A DNA stretch of 64,000 bases from Naegleria gruberi (Eukaryota): NCBI GenBank assembly GCA_000004985.1, contig GG738898.1. One strand, written 5' to 3'. Below are positions 260 through 54,870 of this stretch, in pieces. The stretch's first letter is position 1, and the number at the start of each line of letters is the position of its first letter. A program made the position numbers and the translations under genes. The notes beneath the pieces were generated by a model. That model made no database searches, was not told the DNA's origin, and saw nothing but the letters and a program-made list of their open reading frames with translations.

Positions 260-1372
260 ATGTCCAGTCAACTCTTCTCTGAATGGTCAGCCATCGCTGA
301 CGCCATTGCTGATGTCAGATCCGATCAAACACCAACTAATTGGATGGTTTGTGGTTATGTTGATGGAGCTGTCAAGGTTTTGGAACTTAAAGCCAAAGGT
401 GAAGGTGGTGTTGATGAAATGAAAGAACAATTCAAAGCAACCAATGCCTATTATGGTTTGGCTCGTATTGAAGAAATGATTGATTCCTCATTGACCATTA
501 AATTTGCCTTTGTTAAATTTGTTGGTGATGATTTAAAGCCACTCCTTCGTGCTGGTATTACACCTCAAGTTGGTGATATTACTACCAAATTCAAGCCATA
601 TCACGTTGATATGTACATTACCTCACAAGATGAAATTTCACAACATGTTATTGAAGAATTGGTTGGTAAGGCATCAATGAGTCGTTCCAATGTTATGGAA
701 AAACACGAAGGTGAAAAGATTCAAAGAGATAATGAAGAAAGACAACGTAGATTGGATTCCCACGTCAAGTTACAACAACAATCATCATCTTCATCAACAG
801 TTGGTACAAGCTCACCAACTACAAGCACTGCCACATCATCCCCTGTTCGTTCTGCCTCCACTACAACTAGACCAGTGAGTAGCAGTCCAAGACCAAGTAC
901 TCCTCTCTCAAGTGGTGGAGGTGTTTCTGGTGGTGTTGAATTTGATAATATTGATTCCATTCAAGAAGCAATTAGATCTGTCAGAAATGATGGAGATGCT
1001 ACCAATTGGATGTCTATTACTTATGCACCAAATTCAAAGACTAAACTTACCTTGTTAGGAAAGGGTGAAGGTGGTGTTGATGAAATGAAGGATTCTTGGG
1101 GACCAACTGGTGTCTATTTCGGATTGGTTCGTGTCACTGAAATTATTGATGATTCTGAAACTGTTAAATTCGTCTTTGTTCACATGTTGGGTGATAATGT
1201 TCATCCAATGTTGAAGGGACGTGTCTCCACTCACAAGGGTCAAGTTGAAGCTTTATTACAACCTTATCACACTACCTTTTTCACAACCAATAAGGATGAA
1301 ATCTCACAAGAAGAACTCTCCATCTTGGTTGCTAAGGCATCTCAATCCTACAAGTGGGAAATTAAAAAGTAA
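260..1372 (+). CDS. Actin-binding protein with two tandem ADF-H (coactosin/drebrin/ABP1-like) domains joined by a Ser/Thr-rich linker
   Basis: 370 aa ORF from ATG at 260 to TAA at 1372. Each half matches the ADF-H pattern (NW..CGYVDG...KGEGG..E....YGL.R......KF.FV...GD......PYH), which is closer to coactosin/drebrin than to cofilin. Two copies of the fold sit in one ORF. Confidence 0.7.
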   Translation: MSSQLFSEWSAIADAIADVRSDQTPTNWMVCGYVDGAVKVLELKAKGEGGVDEMKEQFKATNAYYGLARIEEMIDSSLTIKFAFVKFVGDDLKPLLRAGITPQVGDITTKFKPYHVDMYITSQDEISQHVIEELVGKASMSRSNVMEKHEGEKIQRDNEERQRRLDSHVKLQQQSSSSSTVGTSSPTTSTATSSPVRSASTTTRPVSSSPRPSTPLSSGGGVSGGVEFDNIDSIQEAIRSVRNDGDATNWMSITYAPNSKTKLTLLGKGEGGVDEMKDSWGPTGVYFGLVRVTEIIDDSETVKFVFVHMLGDNVHPMLKGRVSTHKGQVEALLQPYHTTFFTTNKDEISQEELSILVAKASQSYKWEIKK

Positions 1373-16223: not shown

Positions 16224-16327
16224 ATGGCTACGGCCATATCACGATGAATGCACCTCATCCCGTCCGATTTGAGAAGTTAAGCATCGTCGAGCCACATCAG
16301 TACTGAGGTGGAGACAACTTGGGAACC
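16224..16327 (+). rRNA. 5S ribosomal RNA, copy 1 (3' end runs into 50-N gap)
   Basis: GGCTACGGCCATATCACGATGAATGCACCTCATCCCGTCCGATTTGAGAAGTTAAGCATCGTCGAGCCACATCAGTACTGAGGTGGAGACAACTTGGGAACC has the canonical 5S helices I-V, the GGCCATA start and the CCCGTCCGAT and AGTTAAGC motifs. Confidence 0.8.
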
Positions 16328-16435
16328 NNNNNNNNNNNNNNNNNNNNNNNNNNNNNNNNNNNNNNNNNNNNNNNNNNGCAGCAGATTGGCTGTTTATTGT
16401 TAGTAATTTATGATATCATTAGAATCGTTAGATAA

Positions 16436-16513
16436 CGTTTGAGAAGTTAAGCATCGTCGAACCACATCAGTACTGAGGTTGGATACAACTTGGGAACCTG
16501 TGGTGCTGTAGTA
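16436..16513 (+). rRNA. 5S rRNA, 3' two-thirds only (5'-truncated copy or repeat collapsed at the gap), followed by a T-run terminator
   Basis: Bases 16436..16513 match the copy-1 3' part and continue to the mature end GGGAACCTGTGGTGCTGTAGTA, then TTTTT. The sequence 5' of 16436 is not 5S-like. Confidence 0.6.
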
Positions 16514-16518
16514 TTTTT
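16512..16518 (+). terminator. Pol III oligo-T terminator after 5S copy
   Basis: TATTTTT follows immediately after the 5S 3' end. Confidence 0.5.
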
Positions 16519-16639
16519 GCAGATTTCATTGCACCAGATTTGTGTGGCCATACTATTGAATGCTGTTCAAATTCAACCTCACAAATGAAACTTGATAAAA
16601 CCATTGACTGTACTTTTACAGGATCCACTTCAAAAAAAC

Positions 16640-19545
16640 ATTATATTTTCTTAACAAGATTCTTGTATTATTTATTTATTTTGTTATCGGACAGTTTATT
16701 TCAAGTTGACAACTTGGAAAAGTGACAAGTTAATTTAAAAAAAAATCTTTGCAAGATGTTAAATTCTTTCCACAAGAGAGAAAGAGAATATTCTGATGAA
16801 GAGGATACAACAGTAGAAGGAAACAAGGATGACCAAGCTGATGAACCTACCAGTGGCCCAACTCACTTTTTTATGCCAGAAACCTATGAACAAGCTATTC
16901 CGAAAAAGAAAAAGCTAATGGACTATGTTAATATTGATATTGAAAACAAAGTACAATTGCCTGAAGCAGAGAGTAGGAATGCAATTGAACACTACCTCAC
17001 AACAAATGTTGGAGCATCTTACTGTAAAAAGATTGGTGAGGGAGGAGGTGGAGATGTTTATCTTGTAAAGAAGGGAAACACCATGAAAGCAGTGAAACAC
17101 ATTCGCAGTTTTAGTAATGAATATAGTAGATTTGATGAGGTATTTCAAATTGCAAAGTTAAAGCACGACCACATTATTGAAATTGATGATTATTATTTGA
17201 TTAATAATGAATTTTGCTTCGAGATGGACTATTATGAAAAGGGCTCATTGGAAACATATAAGAATAAGTTGACAGTGGGTCAACTATTTCAAATAGCATG
17301 TCAAATTTCAAGTGCTATTAAATATATTTCAGAACAGGAACTATGTCATCGAGACGTCAAAATTGCTAACATACTCGTGAAGGAAATTACTGATTCTAAT
17401 ATTTATGTAGTATTGACAGACTTTGGAGTATCTTTTAAGAAAAACTCATACAAGCCCTACCAATTCAAAACTGGAACTGAGCAATATTACGATCCAGAAA
17501 TTGAAAAATACTTTAACACCGAAAAAAGAGGTTTACTAGAGTTTCCTTTCAAAACTGAAACTGATTTGTACGCCCTAGGTGTAACACTTGAACGATTATC
17601 CAACAAAACCACTATCAATAGTACTCCTCTTTTGAAAGAAATTATTACTAGTCTTACAAATTCAACTCTCCCAACAAGAATGAAAATGATGAATGTATTG
17701 GCTGATATTTCACTTGCAACTACCATAGCATTTAAAGATCCAAAAAACAGAACGCAGTGGGATAAGTACTTGCATGCTTGTGTTATGAACCCAAATTGTT
17801 TCATATTTTGCCCTTACAACAAAAATAAGCGATTTATTTACAAAGTATTGGATATCAATCACCATATTTTCGAAATGGTTCCTGACGATTTGTTGGATGA
17901 AAATATAGTTATAAAGTCAATAAGAGATGTCAGATCAGTATTAATATTTCAAAACAGAAATAAGGCTTGCATAGATAAGTTCAAGTCTTTAATTTCACAC
18001 CTCATAGACGTTCATGTACTTAGAAATGTACAATATAATACAGGAGAGAGAATCCAGACAGAGATGGAAAAGTTAAGTGAGAGTCAGTTGGAAATATTGG
18101 TATATTATAACTCTCGTTTTTTTAAATATTTTCCGATCAAGTACACATTGAATCGAAATATTGTATTTTCATTCATCAAAAAAGTGGAAGAATGTTTCCA
18201 GCATTGTAGTTACCGAGACGATGAAGAAATAATTCAATATGTACTAGAGAAAAATCCAAAGTTTATCACTTTCATCAGTTTTGAGTTAAGATTTAAATAT
18301 GAACAACAATATGCAAAGGAAATTTTGGAAGTGGATCCGTCTTTTTATTCATCCTTAAGTGAAATTAGTTTAAAAGATAGATTATTTGCCAAACTTGCAA
18401 TGAAAGGCTGCAAGTCACAACGTGATTTTGATTCAAATTTTGATTGTCTACCTGAAGATCTTAAAACTCAAGATTTTTTTATAGAGATAATTACAGAAAA
18501 TTCCAAGACTTTCCATAATTTGAAGAACCATTTGGATCATGACTCATTGGTACAGGTAATAACACCTAGTTTATATTTTACTTTGGAAGATAGAAGAAAA
18601 ATGGATCGAGATATTCTCAGAAAAATATTATCAGAGAAGTTTTCAAGTGAAGAAATAGAAAAAATATTGAATTGTTTGAGTGAAAATTATTATCACTCAC
18701 ATTTCAAACAGGAATTGTTTGAAAATATTTCAAAAGAAAGCGTGTTAGATTTAATATTGTTGGGTGTACCACTGCCTGAGTGTGTCTACTATCAACAGAC
18801 GCAGATTTCATATTGGAAATTATTACTCGTACCAAAAAAGGGTATTTTACATCAAGTTTTTTGAAAGATTCTACAATTAATATTTCCACATTGGTTTGGA
18901 TTTTATTAAGAAATTGTGCCTTGATAAACAGGGTTTCTCTCACTTGATTCATGCCATTGAAGTTAAAGAACAAGGAAATGAATTGATGCAAAAATGTTCA
19001 GATGACATTGAATTGGTAAATCAAATAATTGAAATATCTCCTGATCTATATGAAAATCTATCATGCAATAATTTAAAAAATAATGAAATAATAATTGAAA
19101 CTTATCTGAATCATACCTACTATCCTCGATTATCCAAAGATTTAAAACTTGATGATGAATTCCAAGCAAAGCATTTAAAAAAATTAATTGATTCAGGATA
19201 CATTACAAAACCAAATAGAGAATTAGTAAGGAGTGGAATATTTAAATCAAAGGATATAGGTTTATTGCTTTATTTGGAATCCAAGGATTTAGACGACAAA
19301 GAATTTATGCTTCCAATATTAGAGAAATTTCCTCGTGCTTATTTGAGCTGTAGATCCTTATTAATAGACAAGGAAATAATCAAGATGGTCATTCGTAAAA
19401 ATGATGAAATTTATGAAGATCTCGATACTACTTTTCAAAAAGATGAGGAAATATTATCTGTCCTTAATGAACCAAAAAGTTCCATCGATTCAATAATGGC
19501 AGAAGTTAATGATAATACTTCTGAGAAATAACTTGATAAATGTAT
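16640..19545 (+). repeat. Segmental duplication unit (about 2.9 kb), copy 1; inverted partner at about 52100..54745
   Basis: Nucleotide-level homology begins about 100 bp upstream of the kinase ATG (CAAGTTGACAACTTGGAAAAGTGA…) and ends about 10 bp after the stop (AAATAACTTGATAAAT). The copies are scattered with substitutions, so they are diverged paralogs rather than an assembly duplicate. Confidence 0.85.
16756..19531 (+). CDS. Atypical Ser/Thr protein kinase with long C-terminal domain of unknown function, copy 1 (two 1-nt frame disruptions near 18800 and 18885)
   Basis: The kinase domain carries IGEGGGGDVYLVKKGNTMKAVKHI, CHRDVKIANILV, TDFGVS and YYDPE. The track splits it into 16756..18864 and 18896..19531. 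Copy 2 on the opposite strand reads through the same region, which places two -1 indels in copy 1. Confidence 0.75.
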
Positions 19546-19789
19546 CTGCTTGGTACTTTCAATCTTCGTTTCCCTCTTGTCCATTTCACTTCTGTATGTT
19601 GCTTGTTACTTTTTGAAAAAGACAAATGAAAATGACAGGTAAAGATGTTAAGTGGAATGTAAAAGAATAAGAGTTGATGAAGGAACTTGTTAAAATCAAA
19701 AAGAATCACCCACCAATCACTAAATCATAGCCTTCACACTGTAGGATGGTCAGATTGCAGAGCTGCATGAGCTAACAGTGAGTGAAATC

Positions 19790-20455
19790 TGGGATTAAAA
19801 TATTAATACTCATCTATAAAATCCTCTTCTTCATCTTCCTCTTGGATGAGATCGAAAGAATTGGTATCAAGGGATGGGAAAGATTCATCATCTTCCTCTT
19901 CTTCCTACTGTGCCCAAAATCAGCCAATTTGATAGTTCCACTCTTGGTTTCTATTAAAATATTACCTCCCTTGATGTCTCTGTGGATAATATTCTTATCA
20001 TGTATTTCAAACCAAACAGTGTTTGTCTTGTATATTGTCTTACTACACTTTCATCAAGTTTGCCAACATTTTTGAGAACGACTTCCACCATCTATCAACT
20101 GTGATTCGATCCTAAATAGTAGTAAGCAAATATGTAGATTACTGAGATAAACTGGGTAGTTTCCATCATGTTATTACAACGACAATTTTTGAATTTTTCT
20201 ACAATATTTCAATGAAAGATTCCTCACCATTGAATAGTTCATGCACAGCTCCTTAACTGCTGATGAATGATGATAATTCAGAGCTTTCAGTAATAATTTC
20301 GTTATGACCTCTTCTCCAAATAATCACATCTACAATTCATCAAGTGGTAAATCATCTACTAACTTGCTGTATTCTTGAATAATTCTAGTGTAATAAGTTG
20401 TTTCCACATCGAACTCAGCCAAGGAATCCAAAAACTTCTTATCATGTTCACTAAA
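19790..20455 (-). CDS. Protein kinase (MEKK/STE-like catalytic domain), 3' portion; upstream part lost in 4.2 kb assembly gap
   Basis: The minus strand encodes …GGS(V)[56 protein letters not shown]…. A 1-nt frame slip sits near GGS and possible short introns lie upstream. A possible 5' exon lies beyond the gap at about 24770..24890 (EIRRNYEVGDRL…). Confidence 0.5.
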
Positions 20456-23400
20456 NNNNNNNNNNNNNNNNNNNNNNNNNNNNNNNNNNNNNNNNNNNNN
20501 NNNNNNNNNNNNNNNNNNNNNNNNNNNNNNNNNNNNNNNNNNNNNNNNNNNNNNNNNNNNNNNNNNNNNNNNNNNNNNNNNNNNNNNNNNNNNNNNNNNN
20601 NNNNNNNNNNNNNNNNNNNNNNNNNNNNNNNNNNNNNNNNNNNNNNNNNNNNNNNNNNNNNNNNNNNNNNNNNNNNNNNNNNNNNNNNNNNNNNNNNNNN
20701 NNNNNNNNNNNNNNNNNNNNNNNNNNNNNNNNNNNNNNNNNNNNNNNNNNNNNNNNNNNNNNNNNNNNNNNNNNNNNNNNNNNNNNNNNNNNNNNNNNNN
20801 NNNNNNNNNNNNNNNNNNNNNNNNNNNNNNNNNNNNNNNNNNNNNNNNNNNNNNNNNNNNNNNNNNNNNNNNNNNNNNNNNNNNNNNNNNNNNNNNNNNN
20901 NNNNNNNNNNNNNNNNNNNNNNNNNNNNNNNNNNNNNNNNNNNNNNNNNNNNNNNNNNNNNNNNNNNNNNNNNNNNNNNNNNNNNNNNNNNNNNNNNNNN
21001 NNNNNNNNNNNNNNNNNNNNNNNNNNNNNNNNNNNNNNNNNNNNNNNNNNNNNNNNNNNNNNNNNNNNNNNNNNNNNNNNNNNNNNNNNNNNNNNNNNNN
21101 NNNNNNNNNNNNNNNNNNNNNNNNNNNNNNNNNNNNNNNNNNNNNNNNNNNNNNNNNNNNNNNNNNNNNNNNNNNNNNNNNNNNNNNNNNNNNNNNNNNN
21201 NNNNNNNNNNNNNNNNNNNNNNNNNNNNNNNNNNNNNNNNNNNNNNNNNNNNNNNNNNNNNNNNNNNNNNNNNNNNNNNNNNNNNNNNNNNNNNNNNNNN
21301 NNNNNNNNNNNNNNNNNNNNNNNNNNNNNNNNNNNNNNNNNNNNNNNNNNNNNNNNNNNNNNNNNNNNNNNNNNNNNNNNNNNNNNNNNNNNNNNNNNNN
21401 NNNNNNNNNNNNNNNNNNNNNNNNNNNNNNNNNNNNNNNNNNNNNNNNNNNNNNNNNNNNNNNNNNNNNNNNNNNNNNNNNNNNNNNNNNNNNNNNNNNN
21501 NNNNNNNNNNNNNNNNNNNNNNNNNNNNNNNNNNNNNNNNNNNNNNNNNNNNNNNNNNNNNNNNNNNNNNNNNNNNNNNNNNNNNNNNNNNNNNNNNNNN
21601 NNNNNNNNNNNNNNNNNNNNNNNNNNNNNNNNNNNNNNNNNNNNNNNNNNNNNNNNNNNNNNNNNNNNNNNNNNNNNNNNNNNNNNNNNNNNNNNNNNNN
21701 NNNNNNNNNNNNNNNNNNNNNNNNNNNNNNNNNNNNNNNNNNNNNNNNNNNNNNNNNNNNNNNNNNNNNNNNNNNNNNNNNNNNNNNNNNNNNNNNNNNN
21801 NNNNNNNNNNNNNNNNNNNNNNNNNNNNNNNNNNNNNNNNNNNNNNNNNNNNNNNNNNNNNNNNNNNNNNNNNNNNNNNNNNNNNNNNNNNNNNNNNNNN
21901 NNNNNNNNNNNNNNNNNNNNNNNNNNNNNNNNNNNNNNNNNNNNNNNNNNNNNNNNNNNNNNNNNNNNNNNNNNNNNNNNNNNNNNNNNNNNNNNNNNNN
22001 NNNNNNNNNNNNNNNNNNNNNNNNNNNNNNNNNNNNNNNNNNNNNNNNNNNNNNNNNNNNNNNNNNNNNNNNNNNNNNNNNNNNNNNNNNNNNNNNNNNN
22101 NNNNNNNNNNNNNNNNNNNNNNNNNNNNNNNNNNNNNNNNNNNNNNNNNNNNNNNNNNNNNNNNNNNNNNNNNNNNNNNNNNNNNNNNNNNNNNNNNNNN
22201 NNNNNNNNNNNNNNNNNNNNNNNNNNNNNNNNNNNNNNNNNNNNNNNNNNNNNNNNNNNNNNNNNNNNNNNNNNNNNNNNNNNNNNNNNNNNNNNNNNNN
22301 NNNNNNNNNNNNNNNNNNNNNNNNNNNNNNNNNNNNNNNNNNNNNNNNNNNNNNNNNNNNNNNNNNNNNNNNNNNNNNNNNNNNNNNNNNNNNNNNNNNN
22401 NNNNNNNNNNNNNNNNNNNNNNNNNNNNNNNNNNNNNNNNNNNNNNNNNNNNNNNNNNNNNNNNNNNNNNNNNNNNNNNNNNNNNNNNNNNNNNNNNNNN
22501 NNNNNNNNNNNNNNNNNNNNNNNNNNNNNNNNNNNNNNNNNNNNNNNNNNNNNNNNNNNNNNNNNNNNNNNNNNNNNNNNNNNNNNNNNNNNNNNNNNNN
22601 NNNNNNNNNNNNNNNNNNNNNNNNNNNNNNNNNNNNNNNNNNNNNNNNNNNNNNNNNNNNNNNNNNNNNNNNNNNNNNNNNNNNNNNNNNNNNNNNNNNN
22701 NNNNNNNNNNNNNNNNNNNNNNNNNNNNNNNNNNNNNNNNNNNNNNNNNNNNNNNNNNNNNNNNNNNNNNNNNNNNNNNNNNNNNNNNNNNNNNNNNNNN
22801 NNNNNNNNNNNNNNNNNNNNNNNNNNNNNNNNNNNNNNNNNNNNNNNNNNNNNNNNNNNNNNNNNNNNNNNNNNNNNNNNNNNNNNNNNNNNNNNNNNNN
22901 NNNNNNNNNNNNNNNNNNNNNNNNNNNNNNNNNNNNNNNNNNNNNNNNNNNNNNNNNNNNNNNNNNNNNNNNNNNNNNNNNNNNNNNNNNNNNNNNNNNN
23001 NNNNNNNNNNNNNNNNNNNNNNNNNNNNNNNNNNNNNNNNNNNNNNNNNNNNNNNNNNNNNNNNNNNNNNNNNNNNNNNNNNNNNNNNNNNNNNNNNNNN
23101 NNNNNNNNNNNNNNNNNNNNNNNNNNNNNNNNNNNNNNNNNNNNNNNNNNNNNNNNNNNNNNNNNNNNNNNNNNNNNNNNNNNNNNNNNNNNNNNNNNNN
23201 NNNNNNNNNNNNNNNNNNNNNNNNNNNNNNNNNNNNNNNNNNNNNNNNNNNNNNNNNNNNNNNNNNNNNNNNNNNNNNNNNNNNNNNNNNNNNNNNNNNN
23301 NNNNNNNNNNNNNNNNNNNNNNNNNNNNNNNNNNNNNNNNNNNNNNNNNNNNNNNNNNNNNNNNNNNNNNNNNNNNNNNNNNNNNNNNNNNNNNNNNNNN

Positions 23401-24688
23401 NNNNNNNNNNNNNNNNNNNNNNNNNNNNNNNNNNNNNNNNNNNNNNNNNNNNNNNNNNNNNNNNNNNNNNNNNNNNNNNNNNNNNNNNNNNNNNNNNNNN
23501 NNNNNNNNNNNNNNNNNNNNNNNNNNNNNNNNNNNNNNNNNNNNNNNNNNNNNNNNNNNNNNNNNNNNNNNNNNNNNNNNNNNNNNNNNNNNNNNNNNNN
23601 NNNNNNNNNNNNNNNNNNNNNNNNNNNNNNNNNNNNNNNNNNNNNNNNNNNNNNNNNNNNNNNNNNNNNNNNNNNNNNNNNNNNNNNNNNNNNNNNNNNN
23701 NNNNNNNNNNNNNNNNNNNNNNNNNNNNNNNNNNNNNNNNNNNNNNNNNNNNNNNNNNNNNNNNNNNNNNNNNNNNNNNNNNNNNNNNNNNNNNNNNNNN
23801 NNNNNNNNNNNNNNNNNNNNNNNNNNNNNNNNNNNNNNNNNNNNNNNNNNNNNNNNNNNNNNNNNNNNNNNNNNNNNNNNNNNNNNNNNNNNNNNNNNNN
23901 NNNNNNNNNNNNNNNNNNNNNNNNNNNNNNNNNNNNNNNNNNNNNNNNNNNNNNNNNNNNNNNNNNNNNNNNNNNNNNNNNNNNNNNNNNNNNNNNNNNN
24001 NNNNNNNNNNNNNNNNNNNNNNNNNNNNNNNNNNNNNNNNNNNNNNNNNNNNNNNNNNNNNNNNNNNNNNNNNNNNNNNNNNNNNNNNNNNNNNNNNNNN
24101 NNNNNNNNNNNNNNNNNNNNNNNNNNNNNNNNNNNNNNNNNNNNNNNNNNNNNNNNNNNNNNNNNNNNNNNNNNNNNNNNNNNNNNNNNNNNNNNNNNNN
24201 NNNNNNNNNNNNNNNNNNNNNNNNNNNNNNNNNNNNNNNNNNNNNNNNNNNNNNNNNNNNNNNNNNNNNNNNNNNNNNNNNNNNNNNNNNNNNNNNNNNN
24301 NNNNNNNNNNNNNNNNNNNNNNNNNNNNNNNNNNNNNNNNNNNNNNNNNNNNNNNNNNNNNNNNNNNNNNNNNNNNNNNNNNNNNNNNNNNNNNNNNNNN
24401 NNNNNNNNNNNNNNNNNNNNNNNNNNNNNNNNNNNNNNNNNNNNNNNNNNNNNNNNNNNNNNNNNNNNNNNNNNNNNNNNNNNNNNNNNNNNNNNNNNNN
24501 NNNNNNNNNNNNNNNNNNNNNNNNNNNNNNNNNNNNNNNNNNNNNNNNNNNNNNNNNNNNNNNNNNNNNNNNNNNNNNNNNNNNNNNNNNNNNNNNNNNN
24601 NNNNNNNNNNNNNNNNNNNNNNNNNNNNNNNNNNNNNNNNNNNNNNNNNNNNNNNNNNNNNNNNNNNNNNNNNNNNNNNNNNNNNNNN
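20456..24688. other. Assembly gap (4233 N). Smaller 50-N gaps lie at 16328..16377, 38531..38580 and 54345..54394. There is a single ambiguous base at 28277.
   Basis: Runs of n in the sequence. Confidence 1.
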
Positions 24689-24948
24689 TGCAGACGATGA
24701 TAGTTACGAGAATTGTGAATGACAGCAGATTCAAATCGAGCCATCAAAACTTGAATTCTATTCTACAACCTCATTGGAAGAGTAATGACGAAGTGTTTTG
24801 GCTGAGACAAAACTTAAGACATCTCCATCGGATAGTCTATCGCCAACTTCATAGTTACGTCTAATCTCCTTGATAGTAGTTAGAACCCATGCCTTTTTAC
24901 CTCATGAAGTTTTAATCTGCTAAATTAACTTTTCAAATTCTTAGCTCA

Positions 24949-26116
24949 ATGTTCATCACATGTCTTCCATCAACACACAATTATTTTACAATAAAAAAAA
25001 TGTCTGAAGAAGTAGCCCTCGTTATTGACAATGGTTCTGGAATGTGTAAAGCTGGTTTTTCTGGTGATGATGCTCCTCGTGTAGTGTTTCCTTCTATCAT
25101 CGGTCAACCAAAACACTTGTCAGAAATGTCCGAATTCTACGTTGGAGATGAAGCTCAATCAAAACGAGGTCTATTAAATTTGAGAAATCCAATCAATCAA
25201 GGAATTGTCAATAATTGGGATGATATGGAAAGGATTTGGTTTCATACTTTTTACAATGAATTGAGAGTTGCTCCTGAGGAATATCCAATATTGATGAGTG
25301 AAGTTTCGTTGAATCTCAAGACAAATAGAGAAATGATGTCACAAATCATGTTTGAAAAATTTTGTGTGCCAGCTCTGTATGTTGCTAATAGAGCTGTCTT
25401 GGCATTGTACGCTTCTGGAAAAAGTACTGGAATGATTGTGAATTCTGGAGATTCTGTCACTCATGCCGTTCCTATTTACGAAGGTCATGCTCTGCCATGC
25501 CATTTTGAAAATGGATTTAGGTGGTCGAGATTTAACAAATTATTTAATGAAAATGTTGACAGAAAGAGGATACACTTTCACTAACACTGCTGAAAGAGAA
25601 ATAGTTAGAGATCGTAAAGAAAAGCTCTGTTACCTTGCTCTAGATTTTCAAGAGGAAATGAATTCGGTTGTAAGAGAAGAACCAACCATTGATAGAAAAT
25701 TGTATGATATACCAGAGGGTAATGTTGTCACTCTTGGGAATGAAAGATTCAGATGTCCAGAGATTTTATTCCATCCAAATATGATTGATGTGGAATCTAA
25801 AGTTGGAATTCATGAAATGACTTTCAATTCAATTGGACAATGTGATCCTGATATAAGAAAGGAATTGTTTGGAAATATTTTCTTATCTGGTGGCAATACC
25901 ATGTTTGAGGGAATTACTGACAGAATGAGTAAGGAATTAACTGCTCTCGCTCCAGAATCCTTCAATATTAAGGTGACTGCTCCACCTGAGAGAAAATACT
26001 CAACTTGGATTGGTGGTTCAATGCTTGCACTCAGTTCCACTTTTAAAGATAATTGGATGACAAGGGAGGATTATGAAGAGGTTGGACCAGCCATCATACA
26101 CAGAAAGTGTTTTTAA
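24949..26116 (+). CDS. Divergent actin / actin-related protein, with a 2-nt frame disruption near 25490
   Basis: The likely ATG is at about 25000 ([37 protein letters not shown]…). The actin motifs continue in a second frame ([28 protein letters not shown]…[36 protein letters not shown]). The two frames join if 2 nt are restored at HALP|HAIL. Confidence 0.85.
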
Positions 26117-26386
26117 AATTTAAACACCAAGTTCCCAAAATGTTTTTCATTGGAGTTCATTTTATCTTTTGCCAGCTATTTATAAACATGATGACGAAAT
26201 TTTCGTCATCATTACAAAAAGAATGATGTCAGCGACTCCGAAATTAAATTGCTGATGAAGAAGACACTGAGGGTTTTCATTCAAATAATGCCCATTCATG
26301 AATGATATTCTTGAAAAAAACAAGACAATTTAATTTGCAAACAAGCAATTCAACTAACAACTAACAACAACAATAACTCAACAAAA

Positions 26387-26935
26387 ATGGACTTTTTCAA
26401 AAAGATTGGTCAATTCTTCTCTGGATGGCTCAAAGGTTTATTCGAAAATAAGGAAGCCAAGATTCTATTCCTTGGTTTGGATGCAGCTGGTAAAACTTCA
26501 GCTCTATATAAGATTCAATTAGATGAAAATGTCAGCACCATTCCAACTATTGGTTTCAATGCTGAAGTTATACAATATAAGAAGGTTACTTTCAGAGTGT
26601 TTGATATTGGTGGTCAGGATAAGATTAGAAAGTTATGGAGACACTATTATCAATCGACGAATGCTATCATTTTCATTGTCGATTCTAATGATACTGAGAG
26701 ATTTAAAGAAGCTGCTGAAACCTTACGGGAAGTTATGCAAGATGATCTGTTGAAAGATGCCAAGTTATTGGTGTGGGCTAATAAGCAAGATTTACCAAGA
26801 GCTGCCAATGTTAAAGACATGGTCAATACTTTGAAATTACACGAGATCAAGCAAGAATGGTACATCCAACCATGTAGTGCCCTGTCTGGAAATGGATTAT
26901 TCGAAGGTTTAGATTGGTTATCCAGTAAATTGTAA
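26387..26935 (+). CDS. ARF-family small GTPase (ARL-like; no N-terminal Gly2 myristoylation site)
   Basis: 182 aa with [40 protein letters not shown] and CSALSGNGL. About 80% identical to the paralog at 51338..51874. Confidence 0.9.
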
Positions 26936-32530: not shown

Positions 32531-34611
32531 ATGTGGAATATAATGGATCATATTTCGAGCGATCAGGCAAAGACCGTCACTGAGAAGGTTATTGATGAGG
32601 AGGATGTTAGTAAATATTCGCATTGGTATTGTAGGGATGAAAGTCTTTTGAAGGAGGATGCGGAATCAAAGCCTAATGAAGAGGCCATCAGAAAAGTACA
32701 AAATTCAATGATTTATTATTTGATCAGAGATGAAGAGACAAAATCGGATGCTGCTGATCAAAAACAACAAGTAGAAACAGAAACTGAAAAGACTAACGAT
32801 GAAAACAATCAAGAAAAGAAAGAAGAAAACAAGGAAAAGAAAGAAGAAAAGATTCCGAATGATTTGTTTGAAATGGAAACAACTCAAGGAGAGGACGATC
32901 TTGTTACGGTCAATTATAATAGATTGGGTCAGAAGGAAGAAGAGTTGGTCTATTTTACCATTCACATTCCAGATATTAAGAAGAAATTGTTGGTTTCTAG
33001 AGAATTACTATTGTTGGAAAGCAAGGTTTTTGAGGGAATGTTGAACAGTGAAATGTTGGAATCAAAATCAAATGAAATGACTCTCCAAAAGGAGCAAGCT
33101 CAAGAAGGTGAAAAATCATCATGTGAATACTTTGATTTGGCTATGGAATTTATTCATGTTGGAAAATTGGGTGTTTCCAAAACTTCATTCAATGAAAATG
33201 TTTCCAATATTATTGAATGGAAAGACTTGTTGGGTTTACTGAGAATTGCTGACGAATATCAAATTGAAAGTTTATCGAGAGCCATTTCAAGAGTTGTAAA
33301 TCAATTCAATGCTCTCACTATTGGAATTACTTGTTTGGAATTTTCAGCTGATTGTAAATCCATCATCTTGCCAAACGTGTGTGATAATTTGGCTTTCAAT
33401 CCAGCTTGCGTTGTATCGGATATGGTTTATTCTGGAATACCAATTGAAACTGCAAACCATGAAGAGGTTAACCAATACTTGGAAGATCCAAAACTTGCAC
33501 TCAAAGAGTATCCATTCCTCGATAGTAATTTAGCTCCTCCAACTTTGCACAAGATTCTTGCAACACCACTTGTGCAACCACTCGCAAAGATTATTATTTC
33601 ACTTCCAATTGAATTATTTGAAGGAATGATGACATCACCTTATTGCGCTCTTAAACAAGATCCAAAGATGGCATTCATTGTTTTGTGGATGCTTCAAGAT
33701 GTTGAGAATAGATATATTGATACTTTTAGATTATTGAAAAGTGTTGATTGGAGCTTGTGTGAAACTGAAATTCTCTACACACTCATCTACTTTGTATTTA
33801 TAGGAATTGGAAAAACATTGCCACAACATAAGAGTATTTGTGGAGAGGCTCACGACATGCTACACATGTCCATGTTTAGAAAAAATAATACTCTTTCTGA
33901 TGAGGATTGGTCAAACTATCTCACCAAATTATTTCCAGAAAGAGAACAAGGCAAAATCAGTCATCTACACAAGGAGTTGAGATTCTTGAATCTTGGAATT
34001 GATGCCTCTGGTAAAACAACACTTCTGTACAAACTTAAATTGGATGAGGTTGTCACAACTGTAAGTAATTTATGAGATTGTAATATTTCTTATAATTTAT
34101 AGATTCCAACCATTGGATTTAATGTAGAAACTGTAGATTATAAGAATGCCAAGATTACCATGGTAAGTTAAAGTATTGATTTTGTTATATTGACTTTAAA
34201 TAGTGGGATGTTGGTGGTGCTTACAAGCTTAGAGCTCTTTGGAGACACTATTACCAAAACACTAATGGCGTAGTTTTCGTTGTGGATTCTAATGATAGAG
34301 ACAGATTGGAGGAAGCAGCTGATGACCTCCACAAATTGGCTAAAGAAGACGAGCTCAAAGATTGTCCAATTTTAATTTTGGCTAACAAGCAAGACCTTCC
34401 AAATGCTATGAGTGTCGCAGAAATAGCAGACAAGATGAAATTAACTTCACTTTCACAAAAGAAATGGTTCATTCAAGCATGTTGCGCTCTGACTGGTGAA
34501 GGATTGTATGAAGGTCTGGAATGGGCTGTTGAATCATGTAATGTGAAACTTGTGAATACTCCAAAGGGTAATCTTCAAAAGTTCTCTCATTTCGGAACTA
34601 TGACATTTTAA
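32531..34611 (+). CDS. Fusion protein: about 510-aa N-terminal region with BTB/POZ-like segment plus C-terminal ARF-like GTPase domain; three exons
   Basis: Exons are 32531..34060, 34103..34162 and 34204..34611, joined by GTAAGT introns of 42 and 41 nt. The GTPase motifs are [44 protein letters not shown] and CALTGEGL. The catalytic Gln of DVGGQ is Ala. Confidence 0.75.
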
Positions 34612-37947: not shown

Positions 37948-40450
37948 TTGAAAATGAGTCAACCACCTTCCGAACCAACTCAACCAGTATCATCATCACA
38001 GTATGTAGAAAGTCTACCAATTCCAGAGGAATCATCACCAAGATTTAGATCAAATTCAAGGTCTCGAGATGGACCACTCTCTCCTACCTTCCAAAAGATG
38101 CCAGCCGATGTTTGGGATTTATCCTCTGAACACCATTCGAAAAAAGCTTCTCTTCCAAAATCACCATCAAGCTTATTAAAGGGATCTAACTGCAATTTGC
38201 AACAAATTGGAAAAACCAACTCATCATCTCAAGTTACACATCATTCAAAGACAAAATTAACTTTGGACATTATTCGTAAATTGCCAAAAGCTGAATTGCA
38301 CAGACACTTGGATGGTTCTGTTCGTGTTGAAACCATCATTGAACTTGCCAAGGAACAAGGTGTCGATTTGCCATCATTTGATGTTGAAGAATTGAGAAAA
38401 CTTGTCTCTGTTACAAATGATTGCACTTCACTTGTTGAATATTTACGTGGCTTTGATATTTCCCTCTCTGTCATGCAAAAGAGATACAGTATCACACGTA
38501 TCATGTACGAAGTTTGTGAAGATGCTGGAANNNNNNNNNNNNNNNNNNNNNNNNNNNNNNNNNNNNNNNNNNNNNNNNNNAGGTATGAGACAAATGGATA
38601 GCAAGATTACCTTGCAACTTGCAGAAATTGCTTGGCGTTACAGAGACCGTGGTGTCTGTGCCTTTGACTTGGCTGGGCCAGAAAATGGCTTCTCCTCAAA
38701 GAACCATGCTTCTGCATTTGAATTAGTTCATCGTAAAATGTTGAACTGCACTCTTCACTCTGGTGAAGCCAGTGGTTGGGAATCTATTCAAGATTCAATT
38801 CGTTATTGTGGTGCTAATCGTATTGGTCACGGAACTCACTTGAAGGAAAATCCAGACCTCACTCAATATGTTGCCAATCACAGAATTCCAATCGAAATTT
38901 GTATCACCAGTAACTTGCAAACTAAGGCCATTCAAAAATTCGAAGAACATCCAGTTCGTGAATTCTTTGATTATGGTATTGTACTTGTTCCATGTACTGA
39001 TAATACTACTGTTAGTAATGTAACACTCTCTGAAGAATACTTGTTAATTCAAAACCAATTCGGATTTGATGTTAAGGAAATTGTCAAACTCATTGATTAT
39101 GGTTTCCGTTCTGCATTCTTGGACTTGTCTATTAAGAACAGACTCCGTGCTGATGCTCTCCATACCATTCAAGAAATCCTCTCCAGTGAAGGATACGACT
39201 TGACAAGTAGTTTCTCTGCCAAGTCTGCTGTTGATTTGGGCTTTGATTTCAACAATAGAGCTGAAATTCTCCCAGTTGACTATGATCTCTACAAGAATGA
39301 AACCATCAGACAATTCATCAATTCCATTCCAAAGGCTGATGTTAACTGTCGTTTCAATGGTTCAGTTTCTGTTGATACTTTGTGGACAAACTTGTCACAC
39401 GATGAATACTCTACCGATTTCCTCAATTTGGAATTGGAATTATTAGGATTGGGAAGAATTCACTCCAAGAATGAATTGGAATGTCTTATTAGACCACCTG
39501 GAGCCAAGCATGACAAGTCAACAATTGCTCGTGCCATTCAAGTCATGTCCTTGTTCTTACAAACTAAGAGTCAAATTATTCATGGTTGTGAAGATATTTT
39601 AGAAAAGGCTGCTGCTGAGCATGTCTTTTATCTTGAATTACAAGTGAGACCAACTATGCACACCAAGAGAGGTCTCAGTGCTCAAGAAGTTTTGGATGTC
39701 ATGGTTGTTACTATCAATGAATGCAGCAAGAGATATAATATTCAAGTTGGTCTCGTTGTTTATGGTGATTTTACTTCCGATGGTTTGGACCAATTGAAAG
39801 AACTTTCCCTCCTCACCATTAGAAATAAGAAGAATTTGGTTGGTTTTGGTTTCTTTGGATACAATGATGAAAAGGGTGCTATCCTCCCTGAATTAATCCC
39901 AGTTTTCAACATGTTGAAGAATCATCAAATTAACGTTTGCTGTTCTGCTGGTTTCTATAATCCTCTCAGTGTCATTCCTGCTATCCATGATGTTGGTGCT
40001 TCTAGATTGAGTGGTTGTTTCTCCATCCACTCTTCTCCATCTGTCATGAGCTACTTGTGTGACAATGGTGTTCCTATTGAAATTTCCATGACTGATACTT
40101 TGAAGAATCTCACAAAGGAAGTTAATGAATTTGCTGGATCTGCTGTCAGATTATTCTTGGATAGAGGTATCAAGGTTGCTCCATGTTCACTCGATTTGAC
40201 CTTGTACGATATGAATCGTTCTGAAAATATCTACTTGATGTCTAAGGAATGCAATTTGAGTTTGAACGAAGTTGTTCAACTCATGTTAATTGGTTTCCGT
40301 ATCTGTTTCCAAAACTATTGGACTCGTAAGGAAATGTTCATTGGTGCCTATCACACAATGTTGAAATTGGTTGATAATTTGAAACTCACATTTGACACTG
40401 ATTCATTCTCCCTCTTCTGTTCCTCATACAATCCAGCGGAAAAGGATTGA
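37948..40450 (+). CDS. Adenosine/AMP-deaminase-family protein with two tandem ADA-fold domains (first intact, second degenerate); spans a 50-N gap
   Basis: Domain 1 has LPKAELHRHLDGS (HxH), HSGEA, RIGHG and VPCTDNT. Domain 2 has NCRFNGSVSVD, CCSAGF and SMTDT at the equivalent positions. ORFs 37948..38601 and 38402..40450 join across the N gap. Confidence 0.8.
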
Positions 40451-51337: not shown

Positions 51338-51874
51338 TTACAATTTGCTAGATAACCAATCTAAACCTTCAAATAAACCAGTGCCATTCATTGCGCTACA
51401 TGGTTGTATATACCAATCTTGTTTGATTGAATTTAATTGCAGAATCTTGGCAAGATCTGTAACATTGGCAGCTCTTGGTAAATCTTGCTTATTAGCCCAC
51501 ACCAATAACTTGGCATTTGATAGAGATGGATCTTCCATTACTTTATGCAATGTTTCCGAAACTTCTTCAAATCTCTCTCTATCATTCGAATCGACAATGA
51601 ATATCACAGCATCTGTTCCATTATAATAATGTCTCCATAAGGTTCTAATCTTATCCTGACCACCAATATCAAACACTCTGAATTGAACTCTCTTATATTG
51701 AATCACTTCGGCATTGAAACCAATAGTAGGTATAGTATTGACATTCTCATCTAATTGAATCTTGTACAGTGTTGATGTTTTACCAGCTGCATCCAAACCT
51801 AAGAAGAGAATTTTTGCTTGTTTGTTTTCGAATAGGGATAAGTTCTTTATCATGTTAGAAAGTAATTGACCCAT
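51338..51874 (-). CDS. ADP-ribosylation factor (ARF) with N-terminal Met-Gly (myristoylation-competent)
   Basis: 178 aa. MGQLLSNM…[36 protein letters not shown]…[16 protein letters not shown]…ANKQDLP…[20 protein letters not shown]. Confidence 0.9.
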
Positions 51875-52113
51875 TTTTGTGTATTAGTATATTAGTTATT
51901 GTAGTAGATTGAAGTATTGTTGTTGTTTTTTTTCAATTTGTTGTTGTTTTCAATCAAGTTCTCTTCCATGCTTGTTTTAAAGTGAAATCCACGCCATTAT
52001 ATCATTTTTTGTAAACTTGAAAAATGTCGTCATCAGCAACAGATAAAAATAGAATGTGCCAGAGCTCTGTGTTGCAATTTTAAAGACAATCACGGAATAA
52101 ATTTATCAAGTTA

Positions 52114-54760
52114 TTACTCAGAAGTATTATCATTAATTTCTGCCATTATTGAATCGATGGAACTTTTTGGTTCATTAAGGACCGATAATATTTCCTCATC
52201 TTTTTGAAAAGTAGTATCGAGATGTTCATAAATTTCATCATATTTACGAATGACCATCTTGATTATTTCCTTGTCTATTAATAAGGATCTACAACTCAAA
52301 TAAGCACGAGGAAATTTCTCTAATATTGGAAGCATAAATTCCTTGTCGTCTAAATCCTTGGTTTCCAAATAAAGCAATAAACCTATATCCTTGGATTTAA
52401 ATATTCCACTCCTTACTAATTCTCTATTTGGTTTTGTAATGTATCCTGAACCAATTAATTTTTTTAAATGCTTTGCTTGGAATTCATCATCAAGTTTTAA
52501 ATCTTTGGATAATCGAGGAAAGTAGGTATGATTCAGATAAGTTTCAATTATTATTTGATTATTTCTTAAATTATTGCATGATAGATTTTCATATAGAGCA
52601 GGATATATTTCAATTATTTCATTTACCAATTCAATGTCATCTGAACATTTTTGCATCAATTCATTTCCTTGTTCTTTCACTTCAATGGCATGAATCAAGT
52701 GAGAGAAACCCTGTTTATCAAGGCGCAAGTTCTTAATAAAATCCAAACCAATGTTGGAAATATTAATTGTAGAATCTTTCAAAAAACTTGATGTAAAATA
52801 CCCTTTTTTGGTACGAGTAATAATTTTCAATATGAAATCTGCGTCGTGTTGATAGTAAAACAACTCAGGCAGTGGTACACCCAACAATATTAAATCTAAC
52901 ACTCTTTCTTTTGAAATATTTTCAAACAATTCCTGTTTGAAATGTGTGTGATAATTTTCACTCAAACAATTCAATATTTTTTCTATTTCTTCACTTGAAA
53001 ACTTGTCTGATAATATTTTTCTGAGAATATCTCGATCCATTTTTCTTCTATCTTCCAAAGTAAAATATAAACTAGGTGTTATTACCTGTACCAATGAGTC
53101 ATGATCCAAATGGTCCTTCAAATTATGGAAAGTCTTGGAATTTTCTGTAATTATCTCTATAAAAAAATCTTGAGTTTTAAGATCTTCAGGTAGACAATTA
53201 AAATTTGAATCAAAATCACGTTGTGATTTGCAGCCTTTCATTGCAAGTTTGGCAAATAATCTATCTTTTAAACTACTCTCACTTAAGGATGCATAAAAAG
53301 TCGGATCTACTTCCAAAATTTCCTTTGCATATTGTTGTTCATATTTAAATCTTAACTCATCTGAACTGATGTCAGTGATAAACTTTGGATTTTTCTCTAG
53401 TACATATTGAATTATTTCTTCATCATCTCGGTAACTACAATGCTGGAAACATTCTTCCACTTTTTTGATGAATGAAAATACAATATTTCTATTAAATTTG
53501 TACTTGAAAGGAAAGTAATTAAAAAATAGAGAGTCATACTCTACTAATATTTCCAACTGACTCTCGCTTAACTTTTCCATCTCTATCTGGATTCTCTTTC
53601 CTGTATTATATTGTACATTTCTAAGCACATGAACGTCTATGAGTTGTGAAATTAAGGACTTAAACTTATCTATGCAAGCCTTATTTCTGTTTTGAAATAT
53701 TAATACTGATCTGACATCTCTTATTGACTTTCTAACTATATTTTCATCCAACAAATCGTCAGGAACCATTTCGAAAATACGGTGATTGTTATCCAATACT
53801 TTGTAAATAAAGCGCTTATTTTTGTTGTAAGGGCAAAATTTTAAACAATTTGGGTTCATAACACAAGCATGCAAGTACTTATCCCACTGCGTTCTGTTTT
53901 TTGGATCTTTAAATGCTATGGTAGTTGCAAGTGAAATATCAGCCAATACATTCATCATTTTCATTCTTGTTGGGAGAGTTGAATTTTTAAGACTAGTAAT
54001 AATTTCTTTCAAAAGAGGAGTACTATTGATAGTGGTTTTGTTGGATAATCGTTCAAGTGTTACACCTAGGGCGTACAAATCAGTTTCAGTTTTGAAAGGA
54101 AACTCTAGTAAACCTCTTTTTTCGGTGTTAAAGTATTTTTCAATTTCTGGATCGTAATATTGCTCAGTTCCAGTTTTGAATTGGTAGGGCTTGTATGAGT
54201 TTTTCTTAAAAGATACTCCAAAGTCTGTCAATACTACATAAATATTAGAATCAGTAATTTCCTTCACGAGTATGTTAGCAATTTTGACGTCTCGATGACA
54301 TAGTTCCTGTTCTGAAATATATTTAATAGCACTTGAAATTGACANNNNNNNNNNNNNNNNNNNNNNNNNNNNNNNNNNNNNNNNNNNNNNNNNNTCTCTG
54401 CTTCAGGTAATTGTACTTTGTTTTCAATATCAATATTAACATCGTCCATTAGCTTTTCTTTTTCGGAATAGCTTGTTCATAGGTTGGACTTTCTGGCATA
54501 AAAAAGTGAGTTGGGCCACTGGTAGGTTCATCAGCTTGGTCATCCTTGTTTCCTTCTACTGTTGTATCATCCTCTTCATCAGAATATTCTCTTTCTCTCT
54601 TGTTGAAAGAATTTAACATTTTAAAGATTTTTTTTAATTTTAAATTATCTTGTGAAATCATCTCACTTTTCCAAGTTGTCAACTTGCTCATCCTGCAGCT
54701 TAGAATTTGAAATAAACTAAAATAAAATAAATTAATCCAAGCAATAAACAACGTATCCAT
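52114..54760 (-). CDS. Atypical Ser/Thr protein kinase with long C-terminal domain, copy 2 (inverted paralog of 16756..19531); contains a 50-N gap and an N-terminal frame break at an A-run
   Basis: ORF 52114..54267 is continuous through the region that is frameshifted in copy 1. N-terminal pieces are 54449..54760 (MLNSFNKREREYSDEEDDTTVEGNKDDQADEPTSGPTHFFMPESPTYEQAIPKKK) and 54264..54449. It is about 93% aa-identical to copy 1. Confidence 0.75.
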
Positions 54761-54799
54761 TCCAGCTCTTGCTCTATTAAGCTACATTTCGATTATTAA

Positions 54800-54870
54800 T
54801 TTGGACGGGAAGCCTGCCAGGAATATGGCGACAATCCCGCTACAGTCTTTGACTGTATGAACGGTGAAGG
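54800..54870 (-). ncRNA. Candidate small structured RNA / conserved repeat element, copy B (just upstream of kinase copy 2)
   Basis: Reverse complement: GTTCATACAGTCAAAGACTGTAGCGGGATTGTCGCCATATTCCTGGCAGGCTTCCCG. In the hairpin the G-C pair of copy A is replaced by A-T (ACAGTC-AAA-GACTGT), a compensatory double substitution. Confidence 0.35.

Follow-up and report, generated by a model that had tools for sequence, protein, structure and literature searches.

An inverted kinase-DUF4116 gene pair and its mirrored ARF neighbours in Naegleria gruberi: a possible case of old duplication with later gene conversion

The arms of the human Y-chromosome palindromes are inverted duplicates that undergo concerted evolution by intrachromosomal gene conversion. 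A very different association is seen in Dictyostelium, where the retrotransposons TRE and DGLT-A target tRNA genes. Here, a locus of the heterolobosean Naegleria gruberi is compared with both systems, using a 64,000-nucleotide stretch of contig GG738898.1 (assembly GCA_000004985.1), hereafter the window. Like the Y-palindrome arms, the locus comprises two copies in opposite orientation on one chromosome, separated by a unique spacer, and the repeated unit is far more alike than the neighbour with which it appears to have been duplicated (dS 0.047 for the kinase pair versus 0.83 for the ARF pair), with sharp edges of high identity and mosaic divergence inside. The N. gruberi unit is much smaller, at 2.9 kb and a single gene rather than tens to hundreds of kb, and less uniform, at 96-97% identity rather than above 99.9%, and its conversion is read from one genome rather than from a cross-species comparison. 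The resemblance to TRE and DGLT-A is limited to the proximity of one of the two copies to Pol III-transcribed genes; the organism is another one, and the unit lacks a reverse transcriptase, an integrase, terminal structures, target-site duplications and a fixed spacing.

The two arms carry the same gene in opposite orientations, at a distance of 32.5 kb:

16664..19545, plus strand: arm 1, kinase copy 1, including ~90 bp on its 5' side and 14 bp on its 3' side
52097..54747, minus strand: arm 2, kinase copy 2, including the 5' flank and 17 bp on the 3' side
16702..16725, plus strand: identical 24-nt block in the indel-rich 5' flank (partner block 54686-54663)

This inverted repeat is genuine and well above chance. 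Its main block (17299-19545 versus 54344-52097) is 96.7% identical over 2253 columns, and its 5' block (16738-16972 versus 54635-54395) is 93.4% identical, with differences that are mostly indels; together, these blocks bear out the inverted kinase-gene duplication proposed in a sequence-only reading of the same DNA. Overall, the copies share 96-97% identity at the DNA level and ~94% at the protein level, such that the ~93% given in that reading suits the protein (about 93-94%) and not the DNA. In the 5' direction, the alignment can be followed beyond the start codons, for ~90 bp in copy 1 (to ~16664) and for ~128 bp in copy 2 (to ~54747). At the other end, high identity extends to 19545 / 52097, 14 nt past the copy-1 stop and 17 bp past the copy-2 stop. 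Upstream of 16664 / 54747, the flanks of the two arms have no detectable similarity. The copies differ by four in-frame indels plus many indels in the 5' flank, where substitution divergence (94% identity at aligned positions) is at the same level as in the coding sequence. The identical 24-nt block holds a perfect palindrome, CAAGTTG-A-CAACTTG (CAAGTTGACAACTTG), and is a candidate cis-regulatory site.

Because the flanks of the two copies differ, the paralogous duplication is taken to be real and not a collapsed or duplicated assembly artefact, in keeping with the earlier judgement. Moreover, an independent environmental contig, L004 (ENA ERZ929261), matches the copy-2 end together with the spacer and the ARF_B gene at 95% identity. 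A more specific artefact may be imagined, in which the 4-kb contig bearing copy 1, being either a chimera or a diverged haplotype from the copy-2 locus, was mis-scaffolded, leaving only one true gene. Copy 1 does occupy a 4,078-bp contig with N gaps at either end, the gap in copy 2 falls exactly where the copies are most alike, and heterozygosity has been reported for N. gruberi (PMC9928731). Nevertheless, the copy-1 flanks within that same contig (a 5S remnant upstream and a minus-strand kinase fragment downstream) are unrelated to copy 2, the 5S sequence on either side of the gap at 16328-16377 backs that join, and the four in-frame indels and many 5'-flank indels also count against a single gene, making this explanation improbable.

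The coding sequences, neither of which contains an intron, are as follows:

16756..19531, plus strand: kinase-DUF4116 coding sequence, copy 1
52114..54619, minus strand: kinase-DUF4116 coding sequence, copy 2

Relative to copy 2, copy 1 is missing single bases after 18797 and after 18887, whereby the frame is lost and a stop is reached at 18864 in the sequence as assembled. With its frame repaired, copy 1 encodes 925 aa, in which the protein kinase domain occupies aa 91-299 and the DUF4116 repeats are matched best at aa 466-512. The GenBank model of this copy (P0001, 799 aa) skips 127 aa as an artificial intron, thereby hiding the two frameshifts. In copy 2, one A is absent from the A-run AAAAAGAAAA(A)G after 54458, at a site 64 nt from a contig end, which results in a stop. 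A 50-N gap (54345-54394) takes the place of ~326 bp, the counterpart of 16973-17298 in copy 1; 717 codons are open between 54267 and the stop codon. In the corresponding GenBank model (P0002), the kinase is wrongly fused with the RCC1-like gene lying upstream, the join crossing an assembly gap. The sequence-only reading had correctly placed two single-base deletions near the copy-1 C-terminus, as well as the A-run slip (near 54450) and the N gap of copy 2, and both copies are indeed disrupted as assembled, with three frame disruptions in all; its copy-2 start at 54760 must be moved to the homologous start codon at 54619. Frame disruptions are also found in two more genes near gaps, namely an otherwise full-length actin-like gene and a kinase fragment running into the gap, which suggests that the local consensus sequence is poor. 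As to which disruptions are real, we infer that the single-base slip in copy 2 is probably a sequencing or base-calling error at a contig end, and that copy 1 is probably a relaxed, young pseudogene.

The N-terminal part of the protein matches the Pfam protein kinase family (PF00069) at 99.9 bits against a cut-off of 31.7 (aa 91-299), and the copy-1 translation possesses the catalytic motifs GEGGGGDV (GxGxxG), AVK (the beta-3 lysine), HRDVKIANIL (HRDxKxxN) and DFG. Among solved structures, the best relatives are PAK and CAMK kinases (E ~1e-12). The C-terminal region matches DUF4116 (PF13475) in 3 stretches, at 45.4 bits against a cut-off of 24.9, and DUF4116 is present in all of the relatives P0006-P0011; a single-sequence AlphaFold model of the region, at pLDDT 37, was unusable for confirming a helical-repeat fold. 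Judged by these motifs and profile matches, the protein combines an ordinary eukaryotic protein kinase with what would be divergent DUF4116 helical repeats on its C-terminal side. The description "atypical" is thus abandoned, given that the GxGxxG, VAIK-lysine, HRDxKxxN and DFG motifs were all found, and the ~550 aa once assigned "unknown function" instead match DUF4116 repeats. A third N. gruberi gene of this architecture, NAEGRDRAFT_48268 (XP_002678385.1, P0007), likewise carries an acidic N-terminus, a protein kinase domain and DUF4116 helical repeats from end to end, and aligns with the pair over 856 columns (E = 8e-67). However, it resides on another scaffold, is only 27% identical to the pair, and scores 210.8 bits for DUF4116 as compared to their 45.4 bits. 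Close copies number only two among 5.8 billion protein clusters and 1.84 billion representatives.

Downstream of each kinase copy lies a gene for an ARF-family GTPase, and the DNA between kinase and ARF differs considerably in length between the arms:

26387..26935, plus strand: ARF_A, ARF-family GTPase, downstream of kinase copy 1
51338..51874, minus strand: ARF_B, ARF-family GTPase, 240 bp downstream of kinase copy 2
19574..19705, plus strand: copy-1 3' flank, weakly and collinearly similar to 52064-51937 in the copy-2 spacer
26322..26381, plus strand: ARF_A 5' flank, weakly similar to 51965-51908 in the ARF-proximal copy-2 spacer
19706..26321, no strand: segment of ~6.6 kb between kinase and ARF_A, present in arm 1 only

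The order of kinase then ARF is mirrored, being on the plus strand in arm 1 and on the minus strand in arm 2. The mirrored ARF paralogs were missed in the sequence-only reading, and they point to a different history of the locus. ARF_A and ARF_B are mutual closest relatives (sister paralogs; neighbour-joining bootstrap 164/200) and have diverged to a dN of 0.15. Naegleria fowleri and Naegleria lovaniensis each possess one ARF co-ortholog, which falls outside the ARF_A/ARF_B pair. The ARF loci of these two species have no kinase-DUF4116 neighbour and share no gene but ARF with the window, which leaves the ancestral adjacency of kinase and ARF a putative one. No other mirrored paralog pair was found for cofilin, the RCC1-like gene or the ORF upstream of the 5S genes.

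The copy-2 spacer shows a split similarity to both sides of the arm-1-only segment. When the 222-bp spacer was compared with the copy-1 3' flank, an equal score was reached by 2/300 shuffles and 2/1052 real window segments, and against the ARF_A 5' flank the corresponding counts were 1/300 and 0/1028. Both similarities are weak (~58% identity with gaps) and AT-rich; that of the copy-1 3' flank may be read as the remnant of an older duplication. Within the arm-1-only segment are a minus-strand MEKK-like kinase fragment, a 4233-N gap and an actin-like gene whose frame is disrupted once; the segment would either have been inserted in arm 1 or have been deleted from arm 2.

Divergence within the kinase pair is unevenly distributed, with one tract standing apart:

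17304..17801, plus strand: near-identical tract in the kinase C-lobe (1 difference in 498 bp)

Synonymous differences amount to 0 at 105 sites in this tract versus 20.5 at 324 sites elsewhere (Fisher p = 0.006), and the longest identical run between the copies is 354 bp (P = 1.5e-4 under uniform spacing). The tract may be the product of the latest conversion, or alternatively of assembly cross-talk or misassigned reads, as it adjoins the copy-2 gap. For the pair as a whole, omega is 0.52, significantly lower than 1 (chi-square p = 0.012). Some constraint persists, in agreement with one copy being constrained and the other relaxed. Changes in the final 207 coding nt were also polarised by means of the environmental contig L004, a comparison that rests on eight sites: copy-1-specific changes comprise 4 nonsynonymous, loss of the ancestral stop codon among them, and 0 synonymous, and those specific to copy 2 and to L004 comprise 0 nonsynonymous and 4 synonymous. 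Over the 224 bp that this contig provides of one relative, it shares the state of copy 2 at 5 sites and that of copy 1 at 2 sites.

Taken as a whole, the locus is probably, on balance, an old inverted duplication of kinase plus ARF in which the kinase was later homogenised by gene conversion. From the observed repeat, gene content, mirrored order, divergence figures and mosaic pattern, we infer the following order of events, with conversion as the homogenising process. An ancestral block of kinase-DUF4116 followed by ARF would have undergone inverted duplication once the lineage of N. fowleri / N. lovaniensis had separated. Thereafter, the ARF copies and all intergenic DNA would have been free to diverge, while the kinase genes may have continued to exchange sequence by intrachromosomal gene conversion (i.e., concerted evolution), which would account for both the 96-97% identity that was kept and its sharp drop at the gene ends. 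Later, ~6.6 kb would have been gained between kinase and ARF in arm 1, or lost from arm 2. Following the last exchange, copy 2 may have remained under purifying selection and copy 1 may have been relaxed.

Two independent events could also have produced this arrangement, beginning with an old ARF duplication and followed much later by a local, DNA-level copy of the 2.9-kb kinase unit that landed by chance and experienced no conversion. The equal divergence of 5' flank and coding sequence is as expected of a single young 2.9-kb unit, and both the undetectable homology upstream of the unit and the outgroup ARF loci without an adjoining kinase agree with such a history. It nevertheless demands a coincidence of position and orientation, estimated at roughly 1e-4 if the landing site is random in 41 Mb and at a few per cent if it lies within 50 kb, and it leaves unexplained both the split similarity of the copy-2 spacer and the mosaic synonymous divergence. 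Independent events are therefore rather unlikely, yet they deserve more credence than any other rival to the history of old duplication and conversion.

The surroundings of the two kinase genes include several small elements, all of them outside the duplicated unit:

16226..16343, plus strand: 5S rRNA gene (Rfam RF00001, 60.7 bits versus a gathering score of 38)
16420..16514, plus strand: 5'-deleted 5S copy (30.9 bits, below the gathering score)
54805..54868, minus strand: 65-nt element with two hairpins

The last 16 positions of the 5S gene lie inside the N gap at 16328-16377. The 5'-deleted copy is missing about its first 45 nt, is followed by a T-run, and ends ~240 bp before the copy-1 ATG (16756) and ~150 bp before the start of the unit; the 240 bp separating copy 1 from a 5S "cluster" in the earlier account is thus accurate as a distance, and the cluster itself reduces to one gene and one truncated copy. 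The 65-nt element has only two copies in the window (50078-50141, plus strand, and 54868-54805, minus strand), which differ in two base pairs, through a compensatory G-C to A-U change and a G-C to G-U change, and at both sites it is upstream of the next gene and co-oriented with it. Within these copies, 50091-50141 corresponds to 54855-54805. Its other copy does sit upstream of tRNA-Asp (50282-50352), as had been observed, at a distance of ~140 bp; the 60 bp said to separate the element from kinase copy 2 proved to be 186 bp when counted to the copy-2 ATG (54619). A search of Rfam at a permissive threshold assigned the element to no family and returned only sub-threshold snoRNA noise, and it has no consistent T-run terminator, for which reasons the label "Pol III-type" is unfounded. 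Of two metagenome scans, one yielded nothing and the other a single chance match of 22 nt in a bacterial-looking contig (L003). That the element is an undescribed small structured RNA or cis-element of Naegleria, or else that the 5S array at copy 1 is a recombination-prone duplication breakpoint, is improbable, more so than independent events. Under the duplication-and-conversion history, the 5S genes by copy 1 and the 65-nt element would be bystanders.

Pol III elements had been proposed to flank each copy and to hint at a duplication or targeting mechanism. The first part holds for copy 1, with its bona fide 5S gene, and not for copy 2, where the 65-nt element has no shown link to Pol III; apart from tRNA-Asp, the region around copy 2 (49800-55300) has no 5S or tRNA gene, and the tRNA-Asp gene lies 1.7 kb from the copy-2 3' end with two other genes between. 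The mechanism itself finds no support, considering that 5S genes are numerous and dispersed in N. gruberi, that terminal structures are absent and that copy 2 has no upstream Pol III gene; likewise, the parallel drawn with dictyostelid genomes falls away in a heterolobosean host. Specifically, 279 putative 5S genes are widely dispersed in the genome (PMC3369914 Table S1), and we estimate that 5S is the nearest neighbour of a few per cent of all genes. The related suggestion that the kinase unit is, or was moved by, a Pol III-targeting mobile element, or is a processed retrocopy, draws on the start of copy 1 ~150 bp downstream of the 5S pair and on the confinement of homology to roughly the transcribed region. 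Against it, no terminal inverted or direct repeats and no target-site duplication bracket 16664/19545 or 52097/54747; no poly(A) tract or A-run follows 19545 or 52097, and flanking direct repeats are absent. Pkinase and DUF4116 are the only matches in the unit, which lacks any reverse transcriptase, integrase or transposase; copy 2 has no 5S or tRNA gene on its upstream side, and no set distance to Pol III genes is kept; and the abundance of dispersed 5S genes, as well as the existence of only two close copies in the protein collections searched, also speaks against mobility. Intron loss is uninformative with regard to a retrocopy, since neither copy has an intron. The mobile-element or retrocopy reading is contradicted on every testable feature and is the least credible of all those considered.

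In the absence of any sign of a mobile element or of 5S/tRNA targeting, the case is an ordinary one that supports no new targeting mechanism and opens no long-standing question. Its value is mainly curatorial, in that the GenBank/JGI models P0001 and P0002 are wrong and the C-terminal 600 aa, formerly "unknown", can now be assigned to DUF4116 repeats. In addition, the locus provides a small, clean case of a gene pair that is much younger in sequence than its co-duplicated neighbour, and as such it may be used for studying inverted-repeat gene conversion in Naegleria, a genus in which recombination and the sexual cycle are still debated.

The kinase gene at 16756..19531 (+), copy 1, recurs in inverted orientation at 52114..54619 (-), copy 2, and this inverted duplication is borne out by self-comparison of the window and by global alignment. 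In the self-comparison, 17299-19545 matches 54344-52097 inverted at 96.7% identity, and 16738-16972 matches 54635-54395 inverted at 93.4%. Segment by segment, the copies are 98.6% identical in their N-terminal coding sequence, 99.8% over 17299-17801, and 96.5% in the remaining coding sequence; the 5' flank reaches 94% at aligned positions, yet carries seven indel events. The 3' edge is sharp, with high identity stopping 14 nt past the stop codon. Copy 1 is one base short of copy 2 after 18797 (CAACA[C]GACG) and again after 18887 (TTCC[A]ACATT); copy 2 lacks one A after 54458, in an A-run, and has an N gap in place of 326 bp of copy 1. The sequence-only reading had considered the duplication real, which is upheld, and its coordinates are all right to within a few bases; the DNA identity is higher than it had stated, and copy 2 has its homologous start codon at 54619. 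Upstream of both copies, within the otherwise indel-rich 5' flank, an exact 24-nt match (16702-16725 / 54686-54663) contains the perfect palindrome CAAGTTG-A-CAACTTG; the palindrome occurs nowhere else in the window, and the block is a candidate regulatory site.

Features of the window surrounding the two kinase copies
16226-16343, 5S gene, just outside repeat arm 1
16420-16514, 5'-deleted 5S copy, just outside repeat arm 1
about 19800-20455, minus strand, MEKK/STE-like protein kinase fragment unrelated to copy 1 and directly downstream of it
24949-26116, plus strand, divergent actin-like gene whose frame breaks once, at about 25496; a contig end lies roughly 800 nt away
26387-26935, plus strand, ARF-family GTPase gene ARF_A
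50078-50141 (plus strand) and 54868-54805 (minus strand), 65-nt G+C-rich element, copies about 92% identical
50282-50352, tRNA-Asp, the only tRNA near copy 2; ARF_B and a cofilin gene separate it from the copy-2 3' end, 1.7 kb away
51338-51874, minus strand, ARF-family GTPase gene ARF_B
16328-16377, 20456-24688, 28277, 38531-38580 and 54345-54394, N runs (five)

The window, about 35% G+C, is from N. gruberi and not from a dictyostelid: the frame-repaired copy-1 protein, used as a query, retrieved two N. gruberi GenBank proteins, P0001 and P0002. The A-run with the copy-2 slip is separated from a contig end by 64 nt. Once its frame is repaired, the actin-like gene matches Pfam Actin end to end (positions 3-410, 437 bits), and its disruption is either a sequencing error or the mark of a very young pseudogene. 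The MEKK/STE-like fragment shows several frame changes and ends in the 4,233-N gap. Because both genes are frame-disrupted, local consensus quality is doubtful. Elsewhere, a very long ORF of at least 2,336 aa (56981-63991, minus strand), with many teneurin-type EGF repeats, a REJ domain and internal repeats, ends 9 nt from the window edge, and ORF 260-1372 contains an internal tandem duplication at 275-1348 (+), in which 275-682 and 941-1348 share 43% amino-acid identity. A third ARF-like domain (32531-34461, plus strand), about 47% identical to ARF_A and ARF_B, ends a 514-aa ORF and resumes at 34189-34461, probably past an intron.

A 5S "cluster" had been described next to copy 1; 5S is indeed present, as one gene plus one 5'-deleted copy only. 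The second unit (16378-16520) keeps its upstream region (cagattgGctgtttat…), the 3' two-thirds of the gene and the T-run, and lacks about the first 45 nt; it belongs, in truncated form, to a short tandem array of 5S units that was collapsed into the N gap 16328-16377. In N. gruberi, 279 putative 5S genes are scattered over most scaffolds (PMC3369914, Table S1). Set against about 16,000 genes, 5S is by our estimate the nearest neighbour of roughly 3-4% of genes, and it is therefore unremarkable that one of two paralogs adjoins a 5S gene. The proposal of a Pol III or mobile-element mechanism is rejected, since there is no 5S or tRNA gene upstream of copy 2 and the hallmarks of mobile elements are absent: the ends of the duplicated unit carry no terminal repeats or target-site duplication, the unit has no poly(A) tract, and Pfam matches of its encoded protein include no transposition protein. 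Likewise, nothing links the 65-nt element, previously taken as Pol III-type, to Pol III. It occurs twice in the window, with none expected by chance, and folds as two adjacent hairpins (z about -3), its copies being set apart by a compensatory change (G-C to A-U) and a second change from G-C to G-U; the next gene downstream, in shared orientation, is tRNA-Asp in one case and kinase copy 2 in the other. No Rfam family fits the element, two scans of the metagenome collection yielded no relative, and a T-run does not consistently follow it.

Six-frame self-comparison identified the ARF genes as a second mirrored pair, and no further mirrored gene pair exists in the window. Both ARF genes share the strand of a kinase copy and lie 3' of it; the distance is 240 bp for arm 2, and in arm 1 it reaches 6.9 kb, an interval that includes a 4.2-kb gap, the MEKK-like fragment and the actin-like gene. 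ARF_B has its closest N. gruberi relative in ARF_A, the two are sisters in a neighbour-joining tree (164/200 bootstraps), and N. fowleri and N. lovaniensis each possess a single co-ortholog; the ARF duplication therefore took place in the N. gruberi lineage. The ARF genes differ by dS 0.83 and dN 0.15, and the kinase copies by dS 0.047 and dN 0.025 (omega 0.52). With moderate confidence, our best reading is that an old inverted duplication would have encompassed a kinase+ARF block, and that gene conversion would then have held the kinase copies similar. The main rival, less likely, is that only the kinase was duplicated, locally, in a separate and recent event. Past the 3' edge of the kinase repeat, 19574-19705 and 52064-51937 remain weakly similar and collinear (a score matched by 2 of 300 shuffles and by 2 of 1052 real segments from the window), and the ARF-proximal part of the spacer between copy 2 and ARF_B resembles the ARF_A 5' flank (1 of 300 and 0 of 1028, respectively). 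Such split spacer homology is the expected leftover of an old block duplication followed by insertion in arm 1.

Differences between the kinase copies are unevenly spread: 17304-17801 has a single one, and the sequence beyond it has 3-12 in every 100 bp. Of synonymous differences, this tract has 0 at 105 sites and the remainder 20.5 at 324 sites (Fisher p = 0.006). If differences were uniformly spaced, an identical stretch as long as the longest one, 354 bp, would have P = 1.5e-4. As the near-identical tract adjoins the copy-2 gap, it could instead stem from misassigned reads. For the pair, omega falls below 1 (chi-square p = 0.012), which means that one copy or both came under constraint after the two last shared sequence. 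An environmental contig (L004; ENA ERZ929261, 1,183 bp), 95% identical to 52320-51162, is independent confirmation that copy 2, spacer and ARF_B follow one another in this order; that sample therefore contains a near relative of N. gruberi NEG-M, with the same gene order. Within the last 207 coding nucleotides, all four copy-1-specific changes are first-position and nonsynonymous, one of them converting the ancestral stop codon to Lys; copy 2 and L004 between them account for four specific changes, every one silent and at a third position. This small sample suggests that copy 2 is the conserved gene and copy 1 the relaxed one.

Frame-repaired copy 1 encodes 925 aa. Its kinase, wrongly termed "atypical" earlier, matches Pkinase (99.9 bits, aa 91-299) with catalytic motifs intact, and its nearest solved kinases are PAK and CAMK (E about 1e-12). 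The C-terminal region, formerly "of unknown function", contains DUF4116 (45.4 bits versus a cut-off of 24.9), a predicted alpha-solenoid in a published modelling study (PMC8078820); our single-sequence model is all-helical but unreliable (pLDDT 37). An exhaustive HMMER search of 1.84 billion representatives with the C-terminal 613 aa returned only eight proteins at E <= 1e-3: the two kinase copies, an environmental fragment (P0006, 40% identity), N. gruberi NAEGRDRAFT_48268 (P0007, 978 aa), and four further DUF4116 repeat proteins, one annotated as bacterial. NAEGRDRAFT_48268 has this architecture too, a kinase with DUF4116, and can be aligned over the full length at 27% identity (E = 8e-67).

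Taken as a whole, the locus is an ordinary paralog pair in a draft assembly. Both public gene models, located on the same 310,422-bp N. gruberi scaffold, are mis-built. P0001 ("CAMK family protein kinase", 799 aa), 100% identical to the frame-repaired query, jumps from '...DSLVQ' to 'GFSHL...', losing 127 aa as an invented intron that bridges the two frameshifts. P0002 ("predicted protein", 933 aa), 94% identical to that query, is a chimera (52114-56086) joining an RCC1-like gene (55301-56086) to kinase copy 2 across the gap 54345-54394. Corrections to these two models are useful by-products of the analysis.
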